In this document: piece after piece, positions 7,014 through 44,685 of the stretch
How positions within the stretch are numbered: position 1 is the first letter of the stretch
Layout: every line of letters begins with the position of its first letter
Sequence record: ON528731
Direction: 5' to 3' (one strand)
Source of the DNA: Shigella phage ESh21
DNA: 64,000 nt
The notes under the pieces: generated by a model
Databases searched by the model: none
Told to the model about the DNA's origin: nothing
Seen by the model: the letters and a program-made list of their open reading frames with translations, nothing else
Position numbers and translations under genes: made by a program

Positions 7014-8083
7014 TTAATTCACATCCAATCTTCTTAGGTGAAGAACGTAAGACTTTTGATTCACTTAATAAATACTATCCAAAAATCTTTGAACTGTATA
7101 AGCAGCAGAAAGCTCAAGACTGGTCTGAAGAGGAATTTCCATTTGAGCAATCACGCTTAGACTTTGAGAGTGTCCCTCAGTCAATGTCTGGGGTTATGCT
7201 TGAAATTCTTAAATGGCAATGGGAAGCAGATACCCAAGTTGCCAAGAGTTTAGCATTCGCTTTTGCACCGTTTATCTCTGATGACATTTATGCAACTGCA
7301 ATCATGAAGCAATCTGAAATTGAGAACCTTCATGCTTTAACTTATTCTGAGATTGTTCGTCAGTGTATCAAGAATCCTGAAACAATCCTTGATGAGATTA
7401 ACAATAACGTTGCTGTTCAAGACCGTCTGAAGACAGTGAACAGAACTTTACAAGAACTACTTGACGAAGGTATCAACTATCGTTTAAGTTACGTTCGTCA
7501 GGAACTGACAGATAAAGACCCTTTACATTTCCATAAGGCAATCTTAAAGGCTCTCTTTGCAGTGACTGCTTTGGAAGGCATTTCCTTCATGGCATCTTTT
7601 GCATGTACTTTTGCACTGGATGCACAAGATAAGTTCCAAGGTATTGCACAAGCTGTTCAAAAGATTATGCTTGATGAAATTATTCACACCAAAATTGATA
7701 TCGAAGTGTTGAAAGAAACTCTGAAGGATGAGAACTGGCAGGAAGCATTCAGACAGATTATGCCAGAGATTAAAGTTATTCTGGACGAAGTTGTTGAATG
7801 TGAAGAGAAGTGGTCTTACTATATCTTCTCTGAAGGTCGAGCAGTTGTAGGTTTAAACACAAAACTTCTTCACGAATGGGTTTACTATAATGCTGCACCG
7901 CTGTATGATATGTTTGGAATCCCAAGAGATTTCGTAGCTCCTAAAGAAGCTCCACTTGCTTACATGATTAAGAAGATGGAAATCGACAAAGAGCAAAATG
8001 CTAACCAAGAACAGCAAAATGGTGCTTACTTGCTTAACACAGTTGTAGATGATTTATCTTCAGGATTTTTAGAGGTTCCTTAA
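7010..8083 (+). CDS. nrdB: ribonucleotide reductase class Ia small subunit
   Basis: 357 aa; ferritin-like di-iron radical subunit pattern; ATGA overlap with upstream gene. Confidence 0.85.
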   Translation: MINSHPIFLGEERKTFDSLNKYYPKIFELYKQQKAQDWSEEEFPFEQSRLDFESVPQSMSGVMLEILKWQWEADTQVAKSLAFAFAPFISDDIYATAIMKQSEIENLHALTYSEIVRQCIKNPETILDEINNNVAVQDRLKTVNRTLQELLDEGINYRLSYVRQELTDKDPLHFHKAILKALFAVTALEGISFMASFACTFALDAQDKFQGIAQAVQKIMLDEIIHTKIDIEVLKETLKDENWQEAFRQIMPEIKVILDEVVECEEKWSYYIFSEGRAVVGLNTKLLHEWVYYNAAPLYDMFGIPRDFVAPKEAPLAYMIKKMEIDKEQNANQEQQNGAYLLNTVVDDLSSGFLEVP

Positions 8084-8328
8084 TGACTTATGTAATTTAT
8101 TCAAAAGACGGTTGCCCTCAGTGTGTAACCGCAAAGAATTTTGCTCAAGCTCGTGGGATTGACCACATTGTAAGAATGCTTGGCAAAGACTATGAACTCC
8201 AAGATTTGATGGGCATTGCAAAAATGCCAGTTCGTCAAATGCCGTTCATCATGAAAACGGAAGATACAGTTTTAACTCCTGTAGGTACTTTACAAAACTT
8301 CATGGCAGAGGTGAATAATGCTGGATAA
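8083..8328 (+). CDS. glutaredoxin/NrdH-like redoxin
   Basis: 81 aa with CPQC active-site motif near N-terminus; directly follows nrdB. Confidence 0.7.
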   Translation: MTYVIYSKDGCPQCVTAKNFAQARGIDHIVRMLGKDYELQDLMGIAKMPVRQMPFIMKTEDTVLTPVGTLQNFMAEVNNAG

Positions 8329-8524
8329 AATCTTTAAAGGCTTCAAAGAAGATGCTCCTATGCTTCTCTGGGTAATTTTCTTGCTGAACATGTTCATTGA
8401 CTTTAAACAAGGTTTAATGTTCGGGTTTATGCTAGTATGGCTAATCATTGAAATTCTAGACATTCAGTTTGGATGGAGTACCAAGGTTAAAAACTTCCTT
8501 GATAATCTCTTAAACAAAAATTAA
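8318..8524 (+). CDS. small membrane protein (holin-like candidate)
   Basis: 68 aa, two hydrophobic segments (LLWVIFLLNMFI, FGFMLVWLIIEIL). Confidence 0.4.
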   Translation: MLDKIFKGFKEDAPMLLWVIFLLNMFIDFKQGLMFGFMLVWLIIEILDIQFGWSTKVKNFLDNLLNKN

Positions 8525-8529
8525 AATAA

Positions 8530-8552
8530 GGGTCTCTTCGGAGACCTTTTTC
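8530..8552 (+). terminator. rho-independent terminator
   Basis: GGGTCTC-TTCG-GAGACC hairpin + TTTTT. Confidence 0.7.
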
Positions 8553-12753: not shown

Positions 12754-13065
12754 ATGGAAAAGCTTTATAACACTCGTAAGATTCAGATTGCAGTTCTGTG
12801 CCAATTTATGGTTGAGAAATATAATGCACATTATTGTGGCACAGGTTTTCTAGCTTTTGGTGGTGAATATATCCCGTTTAAGAAAGCTGTAAAGATGTAC
12901 AATGAGTCACTAGCTAGTGACAAAGAGGTAAAACAACTTAAGCTGACTTATGACAAGAAAGCTAAGAAGATTGTATGTCTGAACCATTCAATCAAACCTA
13001 CAGATTACGTTACAAGCAACATCGGTGAAGAAGGTTTCTTCAAAGTGTTGAAAGTCGCACAGTAA
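12754..13065 (+). CDS. hypothetical protein
   Basis: 103-aa ORF. Confidence 0.45.
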   Translation: MEKLYNTRKIQIAVLCQFMVEKYNAHYCGTGFLAFGGEYIPFKKAVKMYNESLASDKEVKQLKLTYDKKAKKIVCLNHSIKPTDYVTSNIGEEGFFKVLKVAQ

Positions 13066-13078
13066 AAGTATATGATTA

Positions 13079-13107
13079 GGGAACTGTAAAAGGTTCCCTT
13101 TTTATTT
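13079..13107 (+). terminator. rho-independent terminator
   Basis: GGGAAC-loop-GTTCCC + TTTTTATTTT. Confidence 0.65.
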
Positions 13108-13916: not shown

Positions 13917-14798
13917 ATGAAAACTATTATTAGTGTACTGTTACACTCACGTAAAAAAGGTGCTCACCAAGAAGAGTTCAACATTATCCAGTTTCCGTCT
14001 GGAGAAATTGGTGGTAACTTCTCAGAAGACCTAGTAGCCTATGCTGAACAGAATGCTTCCCAGATTGAGAATGTAATCCTCACTGTACAGGGTTACGACA
14101 AAGATACTCTGTTTGCTTTAGCTCTGGCGAAAGAAGCTATTGACAAACTAATTCCTCAGAAATCAACTATGAAGACTGCTGTATTTGGCTTCTTACCAAA
14201 TGCTCGTTATGACCGTCACATGTTTAAAGGTGATGCAGCAGCATTGAAAGTCTTTGCAAATCTGGTAAATGCTATGGAGTTTGATGCAGTATGTGCTTTA
14301 GATACTCACAGCAACGTAGCAGAGAACTTGTTTAAGTGCTTCCATAACCTGCCCCAGAAAGAAGCAGCAGTACACTTTGCAAGTGACCCACGTATTGATT
14401 TCTTAGTGGCTCCAGATGCAGGTGCAGCCAAGAAGACTGAAGAGGCTGCTAAAGAGGTTGATAAGCCATATATCACAATGGCTAAGATTCGTAATCTGAA
14501 AACTGGTGAAATCACTGGTATGCGAATCCTTGATGATGTAGACTTAACTGGTAAAGCTGTCATGATTCTCGATGATATCTGTGATGGTGGTCGTACCTTT
14601 GTAGAAGCTGCAAAACATCTTCGTGAAGCTGGTGCAAGCCGTGTAGAACTTTATGTAACTCATGGGATTTTCTCAAAAGGTGTTGAAAATCTTCTTGACA
14701 ATGGCATTGACCATATCTACACTACAAACTCGCTAGGGGATGCTGAAGACCGTGGTCTGAATCAGTTCTCACAAGTAACTGTAGCAAACATTGAGTAA
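13917..14798 (+). CDS. prs: ribose-phosphate pyrophosphokinase (PRPP synthetase)
   Basis: 293 aa; PRPP-binding loop VMILDDICDGGRT resembles the DD(I/L)xDTGGT motif. Confidence 0.8.
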   Translation: MKTIISVLLHSRKKGAHQEEFNIIQFPSGEIGGNFSEDLVAYAEQNASQIENVILTVQGYDKDTLFALALAKEAIDKLIPQKSTMKTAVFGFLPNARYDRHMFKGDAAALKVFANLVNAMEFDAVCALDTHSNVAENLFKCFHNLPQKEAAVHFASDPRIDFLVAPDAGAAKKTEEAAKEVDKPYITMAKIRNLKTGEITGMRILDDVDLTGKAVMILDDICDGGRTFVEAAKHLREAGASRVELYVTHGIFSKGVENLLDNGIDHIYTTNSLGDAEDRGLNQFSQVTVANIE

Positions 14799-14846
14799 TA
14801 AACTTTGAAGGGGCTGAAAAGCCCCACTATTGAGAGAGATAAAATT

Positions 14847-16673
14847 ATGTCTAAATCAGTTTATGCAGTACCAGCAGGTCTTAATGCGGATGCTTACAAA
14901 GCTGGCCATATCTACCAGTACCCAAGTGCTACACAGTATCTGATGCTAAATCTTACACCTCGTGGTGATAAGTGGTTTAACACTCCACTTGATATTGACG
15001 GTGTAGTTGCTTTTGGTATTCAACGTTTCGTTAAAGATTACTTAGTAGACCACTGGAATGCTACCTTCTTTGAACGAGATAAGAAAGAAGTTGTTGACGA
15101 AATCTTAGAAATCATGAACGGTGTTCTCGGTGCAGATGCGATTGGTCGTGAGCATTGGGAAGAACTTCACGATTTAGGCTATCTGCCAGTCGAAGTCTAC
15201 TCTGTAGAAGAGGGTACAGTGGTTCCAATGCGTGTTCCAATGATTATCTTCAAGAATACTGTAGAGGGCTTCCATTGGGTAGCTGGATATCTGGAAGATG
15301 CTTTCTCTGCTGAAATTTGGAAAGCTTCTACGATTGCCACTATTGCATTACACTACAAACGCATCTGTAAGCAATGGGCTGATGTAACCTGTGATAATGA
15401 CTTCCATTTACCTTGGCAGTGTCATGATTTTGCAATGCGTGGTATGTCAGGCTTTACAGATGATGCTTTTAACGCTGTAGGTCACCTGACAAGCTTTAAA
15501 GGTACTGACAGCTTCCCTGCTGTCTACACTGCTAAACGTGCTTATGGTCAGTTTATGGAAGTAAGTGATATCGGCAACTCTGTACCAGCTACTGAACACT
15601 CTGTGATGTGCGCAAACATTTCATGGAATATGAAAGACTTGTCAGAGGAAGATATTCATTCACAGTACATCATGCAGTCTGATAGCTTGCTGGATGCAAA
15701 ACGTTGGCGTGGTGAGGTTAAAACCTTTGAGCATTTACTGGTAGACGTATATCCAACTGGTATTGCAAGTGTTGTTTCAGATACTTACAACTTCTGGCGT
15801 ACTGTTACAGAGATTCTCCCAGAACTCCGTGAAGTTATCCTGAAGCGTGAAGGTAAACTGGTAATACGTCCAGACTCTGGAGACCCCATTCACATTGTTG
15901 CTGGTTATCGTGCTGTTGAGTGGGAAAATGCCAAGAGTATGTTCTACAAACATATGAAAGAAATTGCACCGAACAATGATAAACTCCTGAATCTTATTCA
16001 GTATTGTGAGTTGCAGGATATGGGTTATGGGTTTGCTGCATGGCTTATCTCTGAAGGTTATGAGTTAGTTGTTGATAAAGAAGATTTTGAAACTGCTGAA
16101 ACAGTTAACTTGAAAGATTTTAATAAGACCGGAAATATTGTTGTTAAGCGTATGCTGACAGCAGAGATTGATGGGGCTATCCCAACTCTCTACAACATCT
16201 TTGGTGGTCGTGTGAACAGTAAAGGTTACAAAGTACTGGATGAGCACATCGGTTTAATCTATGGTGATTCTATCACCCTTGAGCGAGCTAATGAGATTCT
16301 TGGTCGTCTTGCTGACAAAGGTTTTGCAAGCTCTAACGTGGTCTTTGGTGTTGGTTCATACACTTACCAGTACCTGACTCGTGATACCTTTGCATTTGCT
16401 GTCAAGGCTACTCTTGCTCAGATGGACGGTGAAGAAATCATGCTGGCAAAAGACCCTAAAACTGACAGTGGTCTTAAGAAGTCTGCTTTTGGTGGTGTAG
16501 TTCCTATGTGTGACGGTGATAAACTGGAAGCTGTAGACGGCTTTGGCTTTGCAGAGTTTGAAGGTGTACTGGATAATCCAGAATGTGCTTTGAAGTTGGT
16601 GTTTAGCAACTCTCAACCATATGGTTATGTAAACCTTCGTGATGTTCGAAATAACATTGACAAACAACTCTAA
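14847..16673 (+). CDS. nadV: nicotinamide phosphoribosyltransferase (NAMPT/NadV)
   Basis: motif VIRPDSGDP characteristic of NAMPT/NAPRT type II PRTases; start 14847 after GAGAGAG preferred over 14805; C-terminal extension relative to typical NAMPT. Confidence 0.8.
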   Translation: MSKSVYAVPAGLNADAYKAGHIYQYPSATQYLMLNLTPRGDKWFNTPLDIDGVVAFGIQRFVKDYLVDHWNATFFERDKKEVVDEILEIMNGVLGADAIGREHWEELHDLGYLPVEVYSVEEGTVVPMRVPMIIFKNTVEGFHWVAGYLEDAFSAEIWKASTIATIALHYKRICKQWADVTCDNDFHLPWQCHDFAMRGMSGFTDDAFNAVGHLTSFKGTDSFPAVYTAKRAYGQFMEVSDIGNSVPATEHSVMCANISWNMKDLSEEDIHSQYIMQSDSLLDAKRWRGEVKTFEHLLVDVYPTGIASVVSDTYNFWRTVTEILPELREVILKREGKLVIRPDSGDPIHIVAGYRAVEWENAKSMFYKHMKEIAPNNDKLLNLIQYCELQDMGYGFAAWLISEGYELVVDKEDFETAETVNLKDFNKTGNIVVKRMLTAEIDGAIPTLYNIFGGRVNSKGYKVLDEHIGLIYGDSITLERANEILGRLADKGFASSNVVFGVGSYTYQYLTRDTFAFAVKATLAQMDGEEIMLAKDPKTDSGLKKSAFGGVVPMCDGDKLEAVDGFGFAEFEGVLDNPECALKLVFSNSQPYGYVNLRDVRNNIDKQL

Positions 16674-16687
16674 CTGAGTATTATAAG

Positions 16688-16710
16688 AGGCTCCTACGGG
16701 AGCCTTTTTA
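16688..16710 (+). terminator. rho-independent terminator
   Basis: AGGCTCC-TACG-GGAGCCT + TTTTT. Confidence 0.7.
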
Positions 16711-16726
16711 ATTTCTGGAGAATGCT

Positions 16727-17062
16727 ATGAAAATTAAGCAGATGAATATCAACCTTATCTTAGAAGAACGTTGGGAAAACATCAAATGTACTGAAGATGG
16801 TTATAAGTTTGTTAACAAGATTATGCAGGAAGCTCAGACTCAACTTGCTTCTGAGATTCATACAACGATTACTTTGAAGGTTTACATCAAAGGTCTTCCA
16901 CAAAATCACCAAGAAGCCCTTGACCTGTTCTGTGAACACTTCTATAATCCGAACAAAAGAATCCTTGAAGATAATTTTGCAGTCTCTTCAAGCATCGTTC
17001 ATGACAGAAGCTTTATCCTGTTCAAAACTGTAGGAGAGAATGTATGCAAGGTTATTGGTTAG
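16727..17062 (+). CDS. hypothetical protein
   Basis: 111-aa ORF. Confidence 0.45.
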   Translation: MKIKQMNINLILEERWENIKCTEDGYKFVNKIMQEAQTQLASEIHTTITLKVYIKGLPQNHQEALDLFCEHFYNPNKRILEDNFAVSSSIVHDRSFILFKTVGENVCKVIG

Positions 17063-17223
17063 AGATTATCTTATCACTTGGTTGTATTGTTGCTATTGCA
17101 GTATTGCTTTGCAAGTACTTTGCAGAGACTGAACCATGTAATGAGTGTGAAGGTTCTGGAATAGCTGGTATTGGGCATTGTTGCCCTTACTGTAACGGAA
17201 CTGGAAAGAAATTTAAAAAGTAA
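17044..17223 (+). CDS. small membrane-anchored zinc-ribbon protein (59 aa)
   Basis: RBS TAGGAGAGA; N-terminal TM helix then CNECEGSG...CCPYCNGTG (CxxCxGxG-like); below ORF-track cutoff. Confidence 0.35.
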   Translation: MQGYWLEIILSLGCIVAIAVLLCKYFAETEPCNECEGSGIAGIGHCCPYCNGTGKKFKK

Positions 17224-17224
17224 C

Positions 17225-17254
17225 TTGACAGAGGTATCTATAAAAGAATATAGT
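17225..17254 (+). promoter_or_regulatory. sigma70-type promoter
   Basis: TTGACA - 18 nt - TATAGT upstream of rIIA. Confidence 0.5.
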
Positions 17255-17286
17255 TACCTCACCAAACAACAAAGAGGAATCCTGTT

Positions 17287-19656
17287 ATGCGTATGGTAAA
17301 TGACCACGCAGAGATTATCAAAAGTTCAGACACTTTAGAAACTTCTCAAGCTCAGATTAAGATGACACCTGAAATGTTTAGTCTTCTGAGTTCTGGTGTA
17401 TACACCTACAAAGAACGTGCTGTAATTCGTGAGTTATCCTGTAACGCAGTAGATGCTCACATTGATTCAGGTAATAGTGATAAACCTTTCTTGGTTCACT
17501 TACCAACTCGTTTTGAGCCGTACTTTGAAGTTCGAGACTTTGGTACTGGATTGACCCATGATAAAGTAATGAAACTTTACATGACCTACGGAGAGTCAAC
17601 AAAGAATGACTCAAATGACTACATCGGTGCTATGGGTATCGGTTCAAAGTCACCGTTTGCAATTGCTCAATCATTCACTGTATCAAGCTACGTTGATGGT
17701 GTTGTTAACAAGTACTCTGTATATCTTGAGAATGGTATTCCTCAAGTTACTAAACTGACTACTAACCCAACAACTGAACCAAATGGTTTAGCAGTTCGAG
17801 TAGCAGTCTCTGAGAGTCGCATTTCTAAGTTCCAAGAAGAAGCAAGTAATGTATTCTCATACTTTAAAGTTAAACCAGATTGCAACATTGAGTTCTTCGA
17901 TATTCTTGCAGCAATGACTTCAATCTCTCGTGAAGATGGTGTTTATGATGCAATGAAATACAAAGAGGGTTGGCGCTCAAACAATAACAGTGTTCACTTC
18001 AACGTTGTAATGGGGAATATTGCATACCCTGTTGAAATGGGTGAATTACTTGGTTCAGAATTTACAACGGTTCTGCCTCAGTTCTTCCGTAGTTCTGTAG
18101 ACCTTGTAAACATCTACATGCCGATTGGTTCAGTGGCTATTGCTGCATCTCGTGAAGCATTGCAGATGAACGACACTACCAAAAACAAAATTGTTGAAGC
18201 AGTTAAAAAGATTACTTCAACTATTGTTGAGGATGTTATTAAAGAGGTTGCAGACAAACCCACGTTGATTGACGCTGCACAAGCTTATGATGATATGAGG
18301 AAGAATGCTCGTGAAATATTCTATCACGTTAATGATAAGTTAGAGTGGCAAGGTCAGAACTTAGCAGACCTTGAACGTAAACTTTTGGGTATTCGCCGTG
18401 GTCAATTGGCTGAGACTGATGGTTCACCATCCTTCTTAAAAGATGAGAATGGTAACTTCCGTCTTGACAAAGATGGTAATCAGGTTCCTAATATCGGTAA
18501 CTTGTATGAACCTGTTGCATACTACAAATACAGCAGTCTTGAGAATCGTATTCGTGCAACTTCAGCCACGCATACACAAGACTCTGCAATGTTTAGTATC
18601 TTCGGTGCAATGAGTAAAGATAAGTTGAGCAATTACCTGTTCCTTATCAATGACCGTCGAAACAAGAATGGTACTGAAAAGACAACTGGTAAGAATCAGA
18701 TTATTCGTGGTGCTTGCCGTGACCGTGAACAAGAAGAGTCAAACTTCCGTCGCTACAATGGTATTGCATTCCTGTTTAACAGTCAGGAACAATTTGATGC
18801 GTTTGTAACGCTACACATGCTTGATAAGAGTCTGCTAAGTGTTCACAATATGTCATCTAAAGAGCACCATTACGAGAAACGTACAATTACTCGTGGAGTT
18901 GTTAAACTCTACAAAGCTTTTGTCTTCAATGATGACCAAGTAGGTTACTCAGAAGTTAAAGAGAACTTTGATGAGATTGAAGAACCACAACTTTACATCA
19001 AAGCACAAAGTGATGAAGTAATTGGTGGCTTGTTCTCATGTTCTCCAGAGACTGCTGCTAAACTCGTGACAGAGTTAACTGGGCAGTCTGTGTATGTCTT
19101 CCGTAAAGCAAACTGGAAGAAAGTACCGGAAGACTGGATTGAAGTAACTGAACAAGTCTTCAAAGATTATGTTGACAGTTCTCATTGGGTAGATTACCAT
19201 CGTCACATGATTTACCAGTGGGCTGCAAATAAGTGTGACCTGACTGATAAACATATTATTTCTCGTGAATTTACGTTTAATAATAAGAAGAAGTCTAAAG
19301 GTTATGTTTACTCCAAGGATATCAAATTTACGATGTTCTTAGAAGGTAACGAAGACGCTGTAGAAGCAATGTTTGGACGTTTGGCTTACTCTGCTGGGAC
19401 TATTGCTTATGAGGGTACTAGCAGTGTTCTGGAGTCCTTACGTAAAGCAATGCGGCCTAAGACTAAGATGAGACAGTCTCTTGACAAAGCTAAGAGCCGT
19501 CTTAAAAGGAAAATTGAGAAGTATTTTGAGCATCGTCGCACAGAAAACTTCTTGCTTTCTAACTTAGACTGGAATAAAGTATCACCTGTTGAGGTTGGTA
19601 AGTTCTTAGGGTTTGATGTTAAGCACATCCCAGAAGATACTAATTCTTGGTCTTAA
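17287..19656 (+). CDS. rIIA: rIIA protector from prophage-induced early lysis
   Basis: 789 aa; N-terminal VIRELSCNAVDAH and DFGTGL...IGAMGIGSKSPF match the T4 rIIA ATPase-like region (memory-based). Confidence 0.8.
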   Translation: MRMVNDHAEIIKSSDTLETSQAQIKMTPEMFSLLSSGVYTYKERAVIRELSCNAVDAHIDSGNSDKPFLVHLPTRFEPYFEVRDFGTGLTHDKVMKLYMTYGESTKNDSNDYIGAMGIGSKSPFAIAQSFTVSSYVDGVVNKYSVYLENGIPQVTKLTTNPTTEPNGLAVRVAVSESRISKFQEEASNVFSYFKVKPDCNIEFFDILAAMTSISREDGVYDAMKYKEGWRSNNNSVHFNVVMGNIAYPVEMGELLGSEFTTVLPQFFRSSVDLVNIYMPIGSVAIAASREALQMNDTTKNKIVEAVKKITSTIVEDVIKEVADKPTLIDAAQAYDDMRKNAREIFYHVNDKLEWQGQNLADLERKLLGIRRGQLAETDGSPSFLKDENGNFRLDKDGNQVPNIGNLYEPVAYYKYSSLENRIRATSATHTQDSAMFSIFGAMSKDKLSNYLFLINDRRNKNGTEKTTGKNQIIRGACRDREQEESNFRRYNGIAFLFNSQEQFDAFVTLHMLDKSLLSVHNMSSKEHHYEKRTITRGVVKLYKAFVFNDDQVGYSEVKENFDEIEEPQLYIKAQSDEVIGGLFSCSPETAAKLVTELTGQSVYVFRKANWKKVPEDWIEVTEQVFKDYVDSSHWVDYHRHMIYQWAANKCDLTDKHIISREFTFNNKKKSKGYVYSKDIKFTMFLEGNEDAVEAMFGRLAYSAGTIAYEGTSSVLESLRKAMRPKTKMRQSLDKAKSRLKRKIEKYFEHRRTENFLLSNLDWNKVSPVEVGKFLGFDVKHIPEDTNSWS

Positions 19657-19662
19657 AAGAGT

Positions 19663-19691
19663 TTGACAGGGGCTGAAAAGCCCCTTAGAAT
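19663..19691 (+). promoter_or_regulatory. sigma70-type promoter with GC hairpin in spacer
   Basis: TTGACA - 17 nt (GGGGCTGAAAAGCCCCT) - TAGAAT. Confidence 0.5.
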
Positions 19692-19726
19692 ACGAAACTG
19701 TTAATTAACTAAAGAGAGATATTAAG

Positions 19727-20836
19727 ATGACTACTAAAACTAAAGCACAAATCGACGCAGAAATCTATGCACTGGTAATGGAAGGTAAACTGACCAAGAC
19801 TGCCATTGCAAATCGTTACAAAACTTCAACTCGTTCTGTTGGTCGTGCTGTAGAACGTCACCAAGCAACTCTGGGTAAGGCTCCAGCTAAACCAGCCAAA
19901 ACTCTGAAGTCTATTGCAAAAGCTGCTAAGACTTCTAAGAAAGCAACTTCCAAGACTACTGTTGTAAAAGCTGTTAAGAAAGAAGAAGTCAAAGCCGAAC
20001 CAGTAAATGCTCTACATGATGCAATGCAAAGTAACAGCAAGATTGAGTACATGATTACTGGGGATTCTGTTATCATGACTTTCGGTGCAGAGTCTGAGAT
20101 TGTTGAATCAACTCATCCAAACTTTGCAGAAATCAAAGTAGCAGTCGTTTCAGGTGAGTACAAGAAAGCATTTGACCTTATGAATATCCGTAAGTCTATT
20201 GAGAACTTCACTCAGGGTGCTATCACTATCAAGGGTGATAACCTGTACTACGGTGCTGTTCAGATGCGTTCAACTCTGGTAGACCGTATCCTGACCATGA
20301 TGAAGAATGGTGATGAAGGATTTACCCATCTATTAGCGTTCTTCGAGAAGCTGATGGAAAACCCATCCAAAGATTCTGTAGAACAACTTTGGGGATTCGT
20401 ATCACATCTTGACGTTGAGATTGACGAAGAAGGTTACATTATTGGTTGGAAGAAAGTAACTAGCCGTGGTGGTAAACTGTTTGACTCTCGTACTTGCAAG
20501 GTTCCTAATGATTTGGGTAACATTGTAGAGATGCCACGTTGGATGGTTGATAATAACCGTAACGTAACTTGCTCTCAGGGTCTTCATGTTGGTGCTTGGG
20601 ATTATGTAACAAGCTTCTCTGGAGATACCATCCTGAAAGTTCGTGTACACCCACGAGATGTTGTATCAGTACCAACTGATTACCAAGATATGAAAATGCG
20701 AGCTTCCCGTTATGAAGTAGCAGCAATCGTGAATGGCCGTCGTGAAGTTGTTAAAGAGTGGGATGGTTCAGAAGCACTACACGTAGTTGTAGGTACTGCT
20801 GGTGAACTGATTTCTCAGCGTAAACGTGAAGTTTAA
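19727..20836 (+). CDS. rIIB: rIIB protein
   Basis: C-terminal VRVHPRDVVSVPTDYQDMKMRASRYEV matches the conserved rIIB C-terminus; Lys/Ala-rich linker near N-terminus. Confidence 0.75.
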   Translation: MTTKTKAQIDAEIYALVMEGKLTKTAIANRYKTSTRSVGRAVERHQATLGKAPAKPAKTLKSIAKAAKTSKKATSKTTVVKAVKKEEVKAEPVNALHDAMQSNSKIEYMITGDSVIMTFGAESEIVESTHPNFAEIKVAVVSGEYKKAFDLMNIRKSIENFTQGAITIKGDNLYYGAVQMRSTLVDRILTMMKNGDEGFTHLLAFFEKLMENPSKDSVEQLWGFVSHLDVEIDEEGYIIGWKKVTSRGGKLFDSRTCKVPNDLGNIVEMPRWMVDNNRNVTCSQGLHVGAWDYVTSFSGDTILKVRVHPRDVVSVPTDYQDMKMRASRYEVAAIVNGRREVVKEWDGSEALHVVVGTAGELISQRKREV

Positions 20837-20852: not shown

Positions 20853-20880
20853 AGGGCTGCTTCGGCAGCCTTTTTTATTT
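20853..20880 (+). terminator. rho-independent terminator
   Basis: GGGCTGC-TTCG-GCAGCC + TTTTTTATTT. Confidence 0.7.
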
Positions 20881-20906
20881 GAAAAATGTGCAGGATGGTG
20901 TATAAT
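20879..20906 (+). promoter_or_regulatory. sigma70-type promoter
   Basis: TTGAAA - 16 nt - TATAAT upstream of 20914 gene. Confidence 0.5.
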
Positions 20907-25165: not shown

Positions 25166-25233
25166 GTAACTTTGTAAAGTATTCACAATAGAGTAAGCCT
25201 TTCTTGTTCTTGCAAACACAAGGTAAGGAGGGC

Positions 25234-25424
25234 TTTTTCATTTCAAAATCGTGCAGATAAAGGTCTATAAAGAAATCTGTAGAGTGAAATCAAAGTCAAC
25301 TCCAAAGGGAAAATTCATTTTCAATTTGTGCAGGTGAACTCCAAAGAGCTTTTTCATTTCAAAATTGTGCAGAGAAAAATCAGGTCGGGCAAGAAAATTC
25401 ATTTTCAATTTGTGCAGGTAGCCA
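25234..25424. repeat. tandem duplicated about 90-bp unit containing TTTTCATTTCAAAAT(C/T)GTGCAGA and AAATTCATTTTCAATTTGTGCAGGT
   Basis: two copies of each sub-repeat at 25234/25350 and 25309/25399, non-coding. Confidence 0.7.
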
Positions 25425-25427
25425 GAT

Positions 25428-25472
25428 ATAGCCAGCCAGCCCCACCACCCCCTCTTACTCCCCTTCCTCCCA
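25428..25472 (-). other. G-rich tract with G-quadruplex potential (C-rich on plus strand)
   Basis: plus strand CCAGCCAGCCCCACCACCCCCTCTTACTCCCCTTCCTCCC; minus strand has four or more G3-5 runs; atypical in AT-rich context. Confidence 0.5.
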
Positions 25473-25671
25473 AAAGTCAAGAGAAAAATTTGTAGCGGAT
25501 TAAAAAATAATTCTTGACTAGTTTTCTGTTTAGTGCTATGTGTACGCGCCCGTTTCATTCACAACATGCCAAAAATATTTTTAAAAATTTGCTTGACTCT
25601 AAAAAACCAGTCTTATAGTATTTGCATCAACGGGAAGCAATCCCAACAATCCTAAACTGGAGATTCAAAAA

Positions 25672-36757: not shown

Positions 36758-36827
36758 TTTATCTCTCCAATAAAAAAGGGAACCACCTTTCGATAGCTCC
36801 CATCATACAAAATTCTATATATTACTG

Positions 36828-37421
36828 TCAAGCATATCTTTTAGGCAGTAGTGTACTTTTTCTGCTTCGAACATCTTCAAGGATAGATATAAAGTCATCA
36901 GAAGCACCCTTCCAAGGGCTGAAGTTTGGGATGTGTTGACGAATAGCTTCAATAATCGTCTTCATACCTGTGTTCTTCATCCACCAATCTGAACTTGAGG
37001 CAGTCATAACAAAGAACTGCTCATCATCTGTTAAGATGACCTCTTTAGTGAATGGAGAAGTGTACGTAGTGATAATAGAACCACCATTCATATAATATGT
37101 ACGCTTGTGAACTTTATCAAGCATATCATGCAGGTCACCAAACAGTTTCACAACCTCTTGGTGGTTAATGTCTTTCTCAAGGTCTAAACGGTACTTCAGA
37201 AGTGCTTCATCAACTTCTTTAGATGAGAACTTAAAGTACTGCACATCTTCAATGATACATGCAGAGATGTTGTTCACATCCATAGTCAATTTGGCAATTT
37301 TTGCTGGTGAGTTAATGTTTGGCTGGAACGCAGCAAGCACACCCTGAACATTGCCGTAGTGTTGAACTAATGCAACTTGTGGAGAGTCAACTCCACCATT
37401 TTCTTTAATGTTTACACTCAT
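36828..37421 (-). CDS. hypothetical protein
   Basis: 197-aa ORF. Confidence 0.5.
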   Translation of the reverse strand: MSVNIKENGGVDSPQVALVQHYGNVQGVLAAFQPNINSPAKIAKLTMDVNNISACIIEDVQYFKFSSKEVDEALLKYRLDLEKDINHQEVVKLFGDLHDMLDKVHKRTYYMNGGSIITTYTSPFTKEVILTDDEQFFVMTASSSDWWMKNTGMKTIIEAIRQHIPNFSPWKGASDDFISILEDVRSRKSTLLPKRYA

Positions 37422-42219: not shown

Positions 42220-42297
42220 TTTAAAAAGGTGTTGACAGACTTTATTGGTTACTTTAGAGTCTGTCTCATCAACAACAATGAGAGAAGAGAGAGTATT

Positions 42298-43731: not shown

Positions 43732-43760
43732 TTGACAAGGTTGTTGATACCCTGTAAGAT
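43732..43760 (+). promoter_or_regulatory. sigma70-type promoter
   Basis: TTGACA - 17 nt - TAAGAT. Confidence 0.5.
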
Positions 43761-43878: not shown

Positions 43879-43955
43879 CTCTGTTTAGCTCAGCTTGGTA
43901 GAGCGTTCCGTTTGGGGCGGTAAGGCCAGAGGTTCAAGTCCTCTAACAGAGACCA
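43879..43955 (+). tRNA. tRNA-Pro (anticodon TGG)
   Basis: manual cloverleaf: acceptor CTCTGTT/AACAGAG, T-loop TTCAAGT, CCA encoded. Confidence 0.7.
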
Positions 43956-43962
43956 AATTAAT

Positions 43963-44037
43963 GTCGTAGAAGGCAAATGGTTAGCCACCTGACCTTCAAT
44001 CAGTTGCTCGCGGGTTCGAATCCCGTCTACGACTCCA
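43963..44037 (+). tRNA. tRNA, anticodon probably TTC (Glu), tentative
   Basis: acceptor GTCGTAG/CTACGAC, T-arm GCGGG-TTCGAAT-CCCGT, CCA encoded; anticodon loop CCTTCAA has C at position 33. Confidence 0.55.
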
Positions 44038-44122
44038 AATTTGACAGAAGACCAAATACAGCAAACAACTTTTACTTTTCGCGCATAGAAAACATAAAAA
44101 GCTTGGTCTGGTCATTAAGAAT
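44038..44122 (+). repeat. structured inter-tRNA spacer element (family CAGAAGACC...GGTCTGG), copy 1
   Basis: begins right after CCA; conserved ends shared with copies at 44200, 44604, 44685. Confidence 0.6.
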
Positions 44123-44199
44123 CGCGGGTATAGAGAAAGGGCGTCTCACATGTCTCATTAGCATGGCAACGGTTGGTTCGACTCCAACACCCGCCTCCA
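44123..44199 (+). tRNA. tRNA with anticodon CAT (Met or Ile2 or fMet)
   Basis: anticodon arm CATGT-CTCATTA-GCATG, T-loop TTCGACT, CCA encoded; C1-C72 mismatch. Confidence 0.6.
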
Positions 44200-44282
44200 A
44201 ATTTACAGAAGACCGTTTACAGCAATTTAAAAACAATTTTATCGGAAAATTAAAATGAATACGGTCTGGTAATGTTAAACAT
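44200..44282 (+). repeat. structured inter-tRNA spacer element, copy 2
   Basis: AAATTTACAGAAGACCGTTTACAGCAATTTAAA...ACGGTCTGGTAAT. Confidence 0.6.
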
Positions 44283-44359
44283 GGTTAGGAAGCACATAAG
44301 GCATGTGCGGTCGGCTGTTAACCGAATGGCACAGGGTTCGAATCCCTGACTAACCGCCA
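44283..44359 (+). tRNA. tRNA-Asn (anticodon GTT)
   Basis: D-arm GCAC/GTGC, anticodon loop CTGTTAA, T-arm CAGGG-TTCGAAT-CCCTG, CCA encoded. Confidence 0.7.
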
Positions 44360-44369
44360 AAATTTAAAT

Positions 44370-44457
44370 GCGTCGTTATCCCGTAGATGGAAGCGGTGGC
44401 GACTGTAAATCGCTTGTCATTACGACTCGGTAGGTTCGACTCCTTCACGGCGCACCA
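44370..44457 (+). tRNA. tRNA-Tyr (anticodon GTA), long variable arm
   Basis: 88 nt; anticodon arm GGCGA-CTGTAAA-TCGCT; variable stem GTC/GAC; resembles E. coli tRNA-Tyr layout. Confidence 0.6.
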
Positions 44458-44463
44458 AATAAA

Positions 44464-44541
44464 GGTTATGTAGTTTAATCTGGTTAAAATACCTCCCTGT
44501 CACGGAGGAAGATGTGGGTTCGAGTCCCATCGTAACCGCCA
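44464..44541 (+). tRNA. tRNA-Asp (anticodon GTC)
   Basis: anticodon arm CCTCC-CTGTCAC-GGAGG, T-loop TTCGAGT, CCA encoded. Confidence 0.7.
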
Positions 44542-44603
44542 ATTTTGAGAAGGGCTTTTTTAGCCCCTCCCTTAAAGAGTTCTTGTGAGTATTCTTTAAA
44601 GGA

Positions 44604-44685
44604 GCAGAAGACCAAATTCAGCAAGCAACAAAAATATTTCAAGCCAATTAATTTGAAAAATTTAAAACTTGGTCTGGTTCCAACA
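44604..44685 (+). repeat. structured inter-tRNA spacer element, copy 3
   Basis: GCAGAAGACCAAATTCAGCAAGC...CTTGGTCTGGTTCC. Confidence 0.6.

Follow-up and report, generated by a model that had tools for sequence, protein, structure and literature searches.

The 64,000-nt stretch of DNA from Shigella phage ESh21 (sequence record ON528731; hereafter the window) contains a 16-nt sequence, GGGGCTGAAAAGCCCC, that folds into a hairpin and occurs in two exact copies on the + strand, at 14810-14825 (site 1) and 19669-19684 (site 2). The genes next to these copies are prs, nadV, rIIA and rIIB: site 1 lies between the prs stop at 14798 and the nadV ATG at 14847, and site 2 between the stop codon of rIIA (19654-19656) and the start codon of rIIB (ATG, 19727). 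A related hairpin, AGGGGCATAAAAGCCCCT, follows a TTGACA hexamer further downstream (site 3). An earlier reading of the letters alone (the sequence-only reading) had reported the identical hairpin in two places and the related one behind TTGACA. All three are present and the first was placed correctly, while the second copy had been put at 19671-19686 and the site 3 TTGACA at 31188 rather than 31186-31191, with its hairpin at 31192-31209. The gene names prs and nadV given there agree with comparison to relatives.

Between positions 14000 and 20500 the DNA shares 99.9% identity with Shigella phage ESh22, a Felix-O1-like Mooglevirus of the Ounavirinae; identity falls to about 83% with other Mooglevirus genomes and to 60-80% with those of Felixounavirus. 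The orthologue sets used for the comparisons below were unbiased and were drawn from IMG/VR by searching with the rIIB and nadV proteins.

At site 2 the hairpin lies inside the rIIB promoter. It takes up the entire 17-nt spacer (the 16-mer and one T) between TTGACA and TAGAAT, as the sequence-only reading had stated; the two hexamers together match the sigma-70 consensus at 11 of 12 positions. The -35 was TTGACA in 29 of 30 related rIIA|rIIB loci and TTGACT in one, the spacer was 17 or 18 nt long, and the -10 was TAGAAT or TAAAAT, with TCTAAT in the most distant relative. These loci span approximately 57-88% identity of the rIIB protein, and in the GenBank record of AYO145A the orthologous 30 nt bear a 'promoter' annotation. 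The stem GGGGCT/AGCCCC was near-invariant in the relatives (a single mismatch in two sequences), whereas the loop was variable (GAAA, GCAA, TTGA, TCAA) and the downstream 5' untranslated region was free to vary. The stem was found at this junction in Mooglevirus, in the SUSP1/SUSP2 phages and in Felixounavirus; hexamers and stem were kept across three genera, loop and flanks were not.

Covariation was uninformative within Mooglevirus, the SUSP1/SUSP2 phages and Felixounavirus, where the stems never vary; in an alignment of 23 distinct site 2 orthologues 98% of the cells were paired, with zero covariation. We therefore compared across genera instead. In Kolesnikvirus (phiEa21-4 and two IMG/VR relatives) the rIIA|rIIB junction has GGGCUG-GAAA-CAGCCC, without T-run and without promoter hexamers. 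The relative L043 (56% identity) has TTGACA-17-TCTAAT (the number being the spacer length) and a different hairpin, AAGUGGUC...GGCCACUU, which has moved over the -10. Since three different stems are found at one junction, with or without promoter, the comparison argues for selection on the structure itself, functioning as an RNA structure. Since Kolesnikvirus keeps a hairpin but no promoter, the role of the hairpin would be separable from that of the promoter.

Every intergenic hairpin of the window was scored with a d'Aubenton-Carafa-type discriminant (d), which combines stem stability per nucleotide with a weighted T count. Eleven of the 12 canonical terminators had a d above 0. For sites 1-3 the discriminant was strongly negative, with 2-3 T among the 8 nt that follow the stem, and a terminator scan of the window did not include them among its calls; that no T-run stands behind these hairpins, also noted from the letters alone, holds in this genome. 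The folds of sites 1-3 were far more stable than those of shuffled sequence (z = -4.4 to -5.2), and the stems of the T-run-less hairpins matched those of the true terminators of the window in stability (-11 to -13 kcal/mol). Because stems of equal stability have so negative a score, the T-run-less GC hairpins form a distinct class in this phage. By score, sites 1-3 are not efficient intrinsic terminators.

At prs|nadV the hairpin stands alone. Site 1 was ruled out as a promoter spacer: the best reading, TTGAAG-17-TATTGA, reaches 7/12 and has no T at position 6 of the -10, and in relatives, which have ACTTTA-hairpin-ACTTTG or TTTATA-hairpin-ATTTTG, even this weak reading is lost. A promoter search between hairpin 1 and nadV found none, and hairpin 1 must therefore be read through. 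Among 20 distinct orthologues the stem was invariant and the loop variable (about ten forms), with zero covariation. The nadV terminator in the same genomes, taken as a control, likewise had an invariant stem and a variable loop. Several lineages do without hairpin 1. An HNH homing endonuclease gene takes the place of the hairpin-bearing prs|nadV spacer exactly in Felix O1 (L011 17206-17724), ST11 (L015), L047, L048, L052, L053, L057 and L061, the nadV Shine-Dalgarno sequence GAGAGAGA being spared; several of the genomes with this replacement come from IMG/VR. In phiEa21-4 prs and nadV overlap and the hairpin is absent. About 100 nt upstream of site 1 a promoter-like site lies in the 3' end of prs. 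In 14 relatives its hexamers were invariant, synonymous positions included, while four synonymous spacer sites vary. It is a possible embedded nadV promoter, in which case hairpin 1 would lie at about +80 of the transcript.

That the hairpins terminate efficiently in spite of the missing U-tract is possible but doubtful. At rIIA|rIIB the -10 would supply UUAGAAU, the first two residues past the stem being U, and a promoter-bound polymerase would stall the incoming one, so that the junction would act as a true insulator, at which transcription ends and starts anew. Kolesnikvirus, however, has the hairpin without a promoter to restart rIIB. At prs|nadV the Felixounavirus hairpin is followed by ATTTTG and is labeled a rho-independent terminator in the AYO145A record, but nadV has no promoter after hairpin 1 and requires read-through, and the hairpin was lost without replacement in the homing-endonuclease lineages and in phiEa21-4. 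The stem-loop PeSL211/210, one of the PeSL (promoter-early stem-loop) elements described for phages RB49/phi1, reduced the expression of lacZ to the same extent as rrnB T1 (Arbiol et al., 2010, PMC2839356), and overlap with a promoter made a weak bacterial terminator more efficient both in vitro and in vivo (Fletcher et al., 2026 preprint, bioRxiv 10.64898/2026.08.19.745784). Against these precedents stands a d of -29 to -41 in a phage that freely uses canonical terminators with positive scores.

The sequence-only reading had proposed that a hairpin serving both as promoter spacer and as 3' stabiliser or processing site of the upstream message would couple termination and re-initiation. This is plausible at rIIA|rIIB, where hexamers and stem are kept and the arrangement matches the concepts of the PeSL and of the promoter-coupled terminator, but it is not a general rule, as the prs|nadV copy and the Kolesnikvirus hairpin have no promoter. 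Its heading of a recurrent hairpin inside promoter spacers was too general: site 1 is outside any promoter, and the -10 of site 3 matches at 3 of 6 positions. The observation as such is real, its errors being small ones of coordinates and the breadth of that heading.

Allowing up to 3 mismatches, GGGGCTGAAAAGCCCC had 5 matches compared to 0.18 expected, and 5 matches were reached in none of 100 shuffles. Exact matches were found in at least 120 unrelated viral contigs of IMG/VR, with a T-run behind 37% of the matches listed. A special mobile 16-mer was ruled out on this ground, as these contigs often carry the exact sequence as an ordinary terminator. GGGGCTGAAAAGCCCC is a generic stable hairpin module and, since it is generic in unrelated viruses, two identical copies are no evidence of a special element. 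Concerted evolution of the two copies was likewise ruled out, as their loops differ independently per contig (for example GCAT and GAAA in one, GAAA and GCAA in another). Because the loops vary independently, the identity in ESh21 reflects a shared stem and a common GAAA loop, and not ongoing gene conversion. An IMG/VR scan for TTGACA followed by a GGGGC...GCCCC hairpin gave at least 120 loci. Among the matches listed, rIIB-type promoters of Ounavirinae excluded, a -10 with at least 5/6 matches at 16-18 nt was found in 29%, compared to 9% when other hexamers preceded the hairpin (Fisher p = 2e-6), and hairpin-in-spacer promoters are thereby a common phage design.

The invariant stem could in principle be a feature of duplex DNA. 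GGGGCT-N4-AGCCCC would then be an operator bound by a dimeric regulator of phage or host origin, repressing the rIIB promoter from within the spacer and acting as a roadblock at prs|nadV. Both sites have invariant half-sites, a fixed 4-nt gap and a variable centre in more than 40 genomes, and the half-site centres are about 10 bp apart, roughly one helical turn. The same pattern of an invariant stem is, however, seen in the true terminator after nadV, and the loop variants GAAA, GAGA and GCAA all keep the GNRA motif of RNA. At rIIA|rIIB the Kolesnikvirus and L043 stems differ in sequence, and other such hairpins in the window have loops of 5-8 nt or the reversed polarity CCCC...GGGG. The commonness of the 16-mer in unrelated phages, with a T-run in over a third of the matches listed, also speaks against an operator, and no candidate regulator was identified. 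We consider an operator very unlikely.

We consider it probable that the hairpin is an RNA 3'-end barrier or a weak attenuator for transcripts arriving from upstream, packed into the promoter spacer for compactness. This reading starts from the observed anatomy, conservation, non-terminator score and genome-wide association with promoters. A small, very stable stem-loop (6-7 bp GC stem, GAAA tetraloop, no U-tract) between cistrons of the rightward early transcription unit would act on RNA from upstream, as an exonuclease barrier and/or a weak attenuator, and would mark where the prs and rIIA messages end. nadV would be expressed by read-through past hairpin 1, and rIIB by a fresh start at a host sigma-70 promoter laid on the same DNA. 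As the 17-nt sigma-70 spacer is largely sequence-neutral, the hairpin could fit there at no cost. Because the predicted start lies about 13 nt downstream of the stem, RNA from the rIIB promoter would lack the hairpin, and only upstream-derived RNA would carry it. Site 2 would belong to a PeSL-like overlap of promoters with stem-loops that runs through the genome, the spacer position being one register of it, and that shortens intergenic regions and provides repeats for gene gain and loss.

Several points weigh against this. Hairpin 1 is evidently dispensable in several lineages, and its benefit would be small, if any. Covariation was zero within the close alignments of both sites, and the invariant half-sites with their fixed 4-nt gap would also fit a dimeric DNA-binding protein. 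Given the PeSL211/210 result, hairpins without U-tract may terminate better than their score implies. A literature search for transcriptomes and RNA-end or start maps of Felix-O1-like phages returned nothing usable, and we infer stabilisation and attenuation, as we do RNA-level function in general, the position of the transcription start and the degree of termination.

Coordinates of the hairpins, promoters and composite elements in the window. Promoters are written as -35, spacer length and -10; fractions are matches to the sigma-70 consensus; d is the terminator discriminant.
Feature	Position	Strand	Description
Promoter-like site in 3' end of prs	14695-14723	+	TTGACA-17-TACACT, 10/12
Site 1	14810-14825	+	GGGGCU-GAAA-AGCCCC; dG -11.3 kcal/mol, z = -4.37, d = -36.7; alone, outside any promoter
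Promoter and canonical terminator (16685-16708)	16657-16708	+	TTGACA-16-TATTAT; -10 abuts terminator, predicted start in 5' arm
rIIA promoter	17225-17260	+	TTGACA-18-TATAGT; hairpin GAGGUAUCUAUA...UAUAGUUACCUC, 5' arm in spacer, 3' arm over -10
rIIB promoter, -35	19663-19668	+	TTGACA
Site 2	19668-19685 (16-mer 19669-19684)	+	A-GGGGCU-GAAA-AGCCCC-U; 7 bp, GNRA tetraloop; dG -12.9 kcal/mol, z = -4.57, d = -29.3
rIIB promoter, -10	19686-19691	+	TAGAAT; predicted transcription start about 19697-19699
Intergenic promoter/stem-loop array	26053-31251	+	about ten cassettes of about 85 nt among small open reading frames
Site 3	31186-31214	+	TTGACA 31186-31191; hairpin AGGGGC-AUAAAA-GCCCCU 31192-31209; weak -10 TACTTT 31209-31214; outer stem widens structure to 31182-31220, dG -19.5 kcal/mol, z = -5.2, d = -41.4
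Related T-run-less hairpin	34985-35002	-	AGGGG-UGUAAAAG-CCCCU, in the gap between two leftward genes; without promoter; z = -2.9
Promoter and canonical terminator directly after	36778-36831	-	TTGACA-18-TATGAT, design as at 16657
Palindromic promoter	42232-42265	+	TTGACA-17-TAGAGT; arms take part of -35 and all of -10; dG -17.5 kcal/mol

For a catalogue of registers, every tandem-gene gap in the window was folded. The hairpin was found wholly in the spacer at the promoters at 19663 and 31186. Its arms flank or cover the -10 at 17225, at 277 and in five TTTACA-17-TAGTAT cassettes at 26-30 kb (26058, 26533, 27131, 28193 and 29621), which have GGGG...CCCC arms around the -10. It lies just past the predicted start at 27829 (27829-27911), 30360 and 30952, all within the intergenic array. 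Five further promoters have a canonical terminator 0-3 nt past the -10 (8499-8546, 13048-13099, 16657-16708, and on the - strand 36831-36778 and 38898-38849), and the arrangement at 16657-16708, at the 3' end of nadV, was kept in 28 related loci. At these five, RNA from upstream would terminate, but the promoter's own transcripts would be unable to fold into the stem, since the predicted start lies inside the 5' arm. At 20855-20906 the T-tract of a terminator overlaps a -35, TTGAAA.

The 18 intergenic promoter-like sites with at least 10/12 matches had a mean folding energy of -10.6 kcal/mol, compared to -6.6 kcal/mol for 35 intragenic look-alikes (Mann-Whitney p = 4e-4) and -7.5 kcal/mol for random windows. 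Most strong intergenic promoters in this phage overlap a stem-loop in some register. In our own tabulation, 10 of 11 intergenic hairpins with a 4-nt loop had a UNCG or GNRA loop when read in the local gene sense, leftward genes included (among those tabulated are 4407, 8531, 14810, 16688, 19668, 20855, 22647, 36778, 38849 and 40616, with GAAA at sites 1 and 2). By our arithmetic such a loop is expected by chance in about 5% of cases. As UNCG and GNRA are strand-specific stability motifs of RNA, this bias toward the sense strand points to a role at the RNA level.

Read as a promoter, site 3 is TTGACA-17-TACTTT, with 9/12 matches and the sole -10 at the proper distance. Its cassette (31180-31251, upstream of an 83-aa gene at 31252) was absent from five IMG/VR relatives (L074-L078) and from Felix O1 (L010 11989-12057). 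At this locus the relatives have TTGCAA-17-TAATAT with a GGGGAGGG...CTTCCCC hairpin after the predicted start, which indicates that the entire cassette was replaced. Cassette repeats equivalent to those of the array are also present in Felix O1. A 343-bp segment of ESh22, consisting of a small open reading frame of 258 nt and one cassette (L001 32526-32958), is missing from the window at 26526-26614. The two phages are 99.5% identical, and the junction of the indel falls within direct repeats of the approximately 89-nt cassette, as expected from recombination between cassettes.

Such exchange raises the question of whether the hairpins matter as DNA, being repeats or secondary-structure hot spots for recombination, cassette exchange and homing-endonuclease insertion, with no significant role in RNA. 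The 343-bp indel bounded by direct repeats, the site 3 cassette unlike that of relatives, the exact replacement of hairpin 1 by a homing endonuclease gene, and the shuffling and mini-circles mediated by PeSLs in RB49/phi1 (PMC2839356) all fit this. What recombines, however, is the entire cassette of about 85 nt rather than a hairpin of 16 nt; both site 1 and site 2 belong to the conserved core genes, and none of 30 loci has an indel at site 2; and the tetraloop bias of the sense strand speaks for RNA. Recombination is more plausibly a side effect of having regulatory cassettes in many copies, and a role confined to DNA is most improbable.

Some other regions of the window were noted. About 500 nt without open reading frame (25166-25671) contain four TTCATTT(T)CAA(N)(T)TGTGCAG repeats followed by a polypyrimidine run, CCCCACCACCCCCTCTTACTCCCCTTCCTCCC; the Felix O1 counterpart is at 7915-8423, and the motif is seen again at 20870-20894. 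This region could be an origin or a second class of promoter. The interval 31504-33007, more than 1 kb long and poor in open reading frames, is where rightward genes give way to leftward genes. It opens with a T-less hairpin (31518-31532), followed by a terminator-like AAGCCCC-UUAAAU-GGGGCUU with UUU (31544-31563), and both hairpins are kept in Felix O1 and five relatives. In an Rfam 15 scan of the window tRNAs alone passed the gathering score, and a scan of 14600-19800 with E up to 5 gave no credible match; on this basis we rejected the idea that a riboswitch or another known RNA family precedes nadV. A cluster of 25 tRNA genes lies at 43879-48614 (+), and TTGACA-type promoters are found among them at 43732, 43823 and 45215.

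The hairpins share with canonical rho-independent terminators a GC-rich stem of 6-7 bp, a stable tetraloop, an intergenic place and an equal stem stability. They differ in having no U-tract and a strongly negative score, and in that the genes after site 1 need read-through. Stem-loops between the cistrons of polycistronic operons can stabilise mRNA, examples being REP-type elements and 3' hairpins that block PNPase and RNase II. They resemble the hairpins described here in being stable, without U-tract, intercistronic, and dispensable but conserved, whereas REP elements are larger and host-encoded.

In bacteria, promoter-coupled terminators have been mapped by Term-seq and cappable-seq, the criterion being that an RNA 3' end maps no more than about 35 bp (mode about 10 bp) ahead of a start on the same strand (bioRxiv 10.64898/2026.08.19.745784). 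The likeness is that an upstream stem-loop and a downstream promoter share the intergenic DNA between tandem genes, which saves space. The geometry at site 2 is compatible, with a predicted stem end at 19685 and a predicted start at about 19698, and the expected RNA 3' end would be some 10 nt from that start. The bacterial stem-loop DNA, however, constitutes the -35 and has a T-tract just before the -10, whereas the stem-loop of site 2 is in the spacer and one T precedes its -10. The element at 20855-20906 is closer to the bacterial motif than site 2.

The closest likeness is to the PeSLs of RB49/phi1, in which a sigma-70-like early promoter is combined with AT-rich DNA upstream of it and with a stem-loop of the form GGGG...CCCC (Arbiol et al., 2010, PMC2839356). 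The stem-loops take one of five registers, most frequently between -35 and -10 or over the -10; reporter assays gave both promoter and attenuator activity; and the cassettes recombine, shuffling small open reading frames, with mini-circles documented (PMC2839356). PeSLs were later extended to further T4-like phages only (PST/T4, nt-1/KVP40; Comeau et al., 2014, PMC4122927), and in the literature searched PeSL descriptions concerned T4-like phages only. The genome paper of Felix O1 lists 57-bp and 39-bp intergenic repeats without interpretation, and states that the passage of transcription past many terminators, and its timing, are not known.

We judged the likeness at the level of sequence, from the descriptions of the RB49/phi1 elements in these papers. 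A near-consensus sigma-70 promoter was found at site 2, a marginal one at site 3 (9/12) and none at site 1 (7/12), which is hence no PeSL. A stable G(n)-loop-C(n) stem-loop lies over the promoter, filling the spacer at site 2 and taking other registers elsewhere in the window. The upstream region is AT-rich (73% A+T in the 22 nt before the -35 at sites 2 and 3) and intergenic. The repeats are many and concentrated among small open reading frames, about ten of them at 26-31 kb, and cassettes bound indels or replacements between close genomes (the 343-bp ESh22 indel and the swap at site 3). The differences are that the present phage belongs to Ounavirinae, another myovirus subfamily, and that sites 1 and 2 lie in the conserved core (nucleotide metabolism, rII) and not in hyperplastic regions.

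It is conceivable, though unlikely, that the spacer hairpin is a conditional insulator that terminates only when polymerase occupies the overlapping promoter, so that rIIA/rIIB and similar cassettes would be insulated early and read through later, and that PeSL-type cassettes serve large lytic phages in general, far outside the T4 group, as a recombination module. The comparison as it stands reveals no new mechanism. The observation is real, and the design is an ordinary one. The catalogue provides concrete promoter and hairpin coordinates that are useful for annotation and transcript mapping in Felix-O1-like phages, which are widely used in the typing and biocontrol of Salmonella, E. coli and Shigella, and the cassette design explains a gene-cassette indel between near-identical isolates. 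Altogether, the Felix-O1-like cassettes have the sequence features of PeSLs, a design already described in T4-like phages and in bacteria, and the composite promoter/stem-loop design of T4-like phages would also organise early transcription in these unrelated phages.

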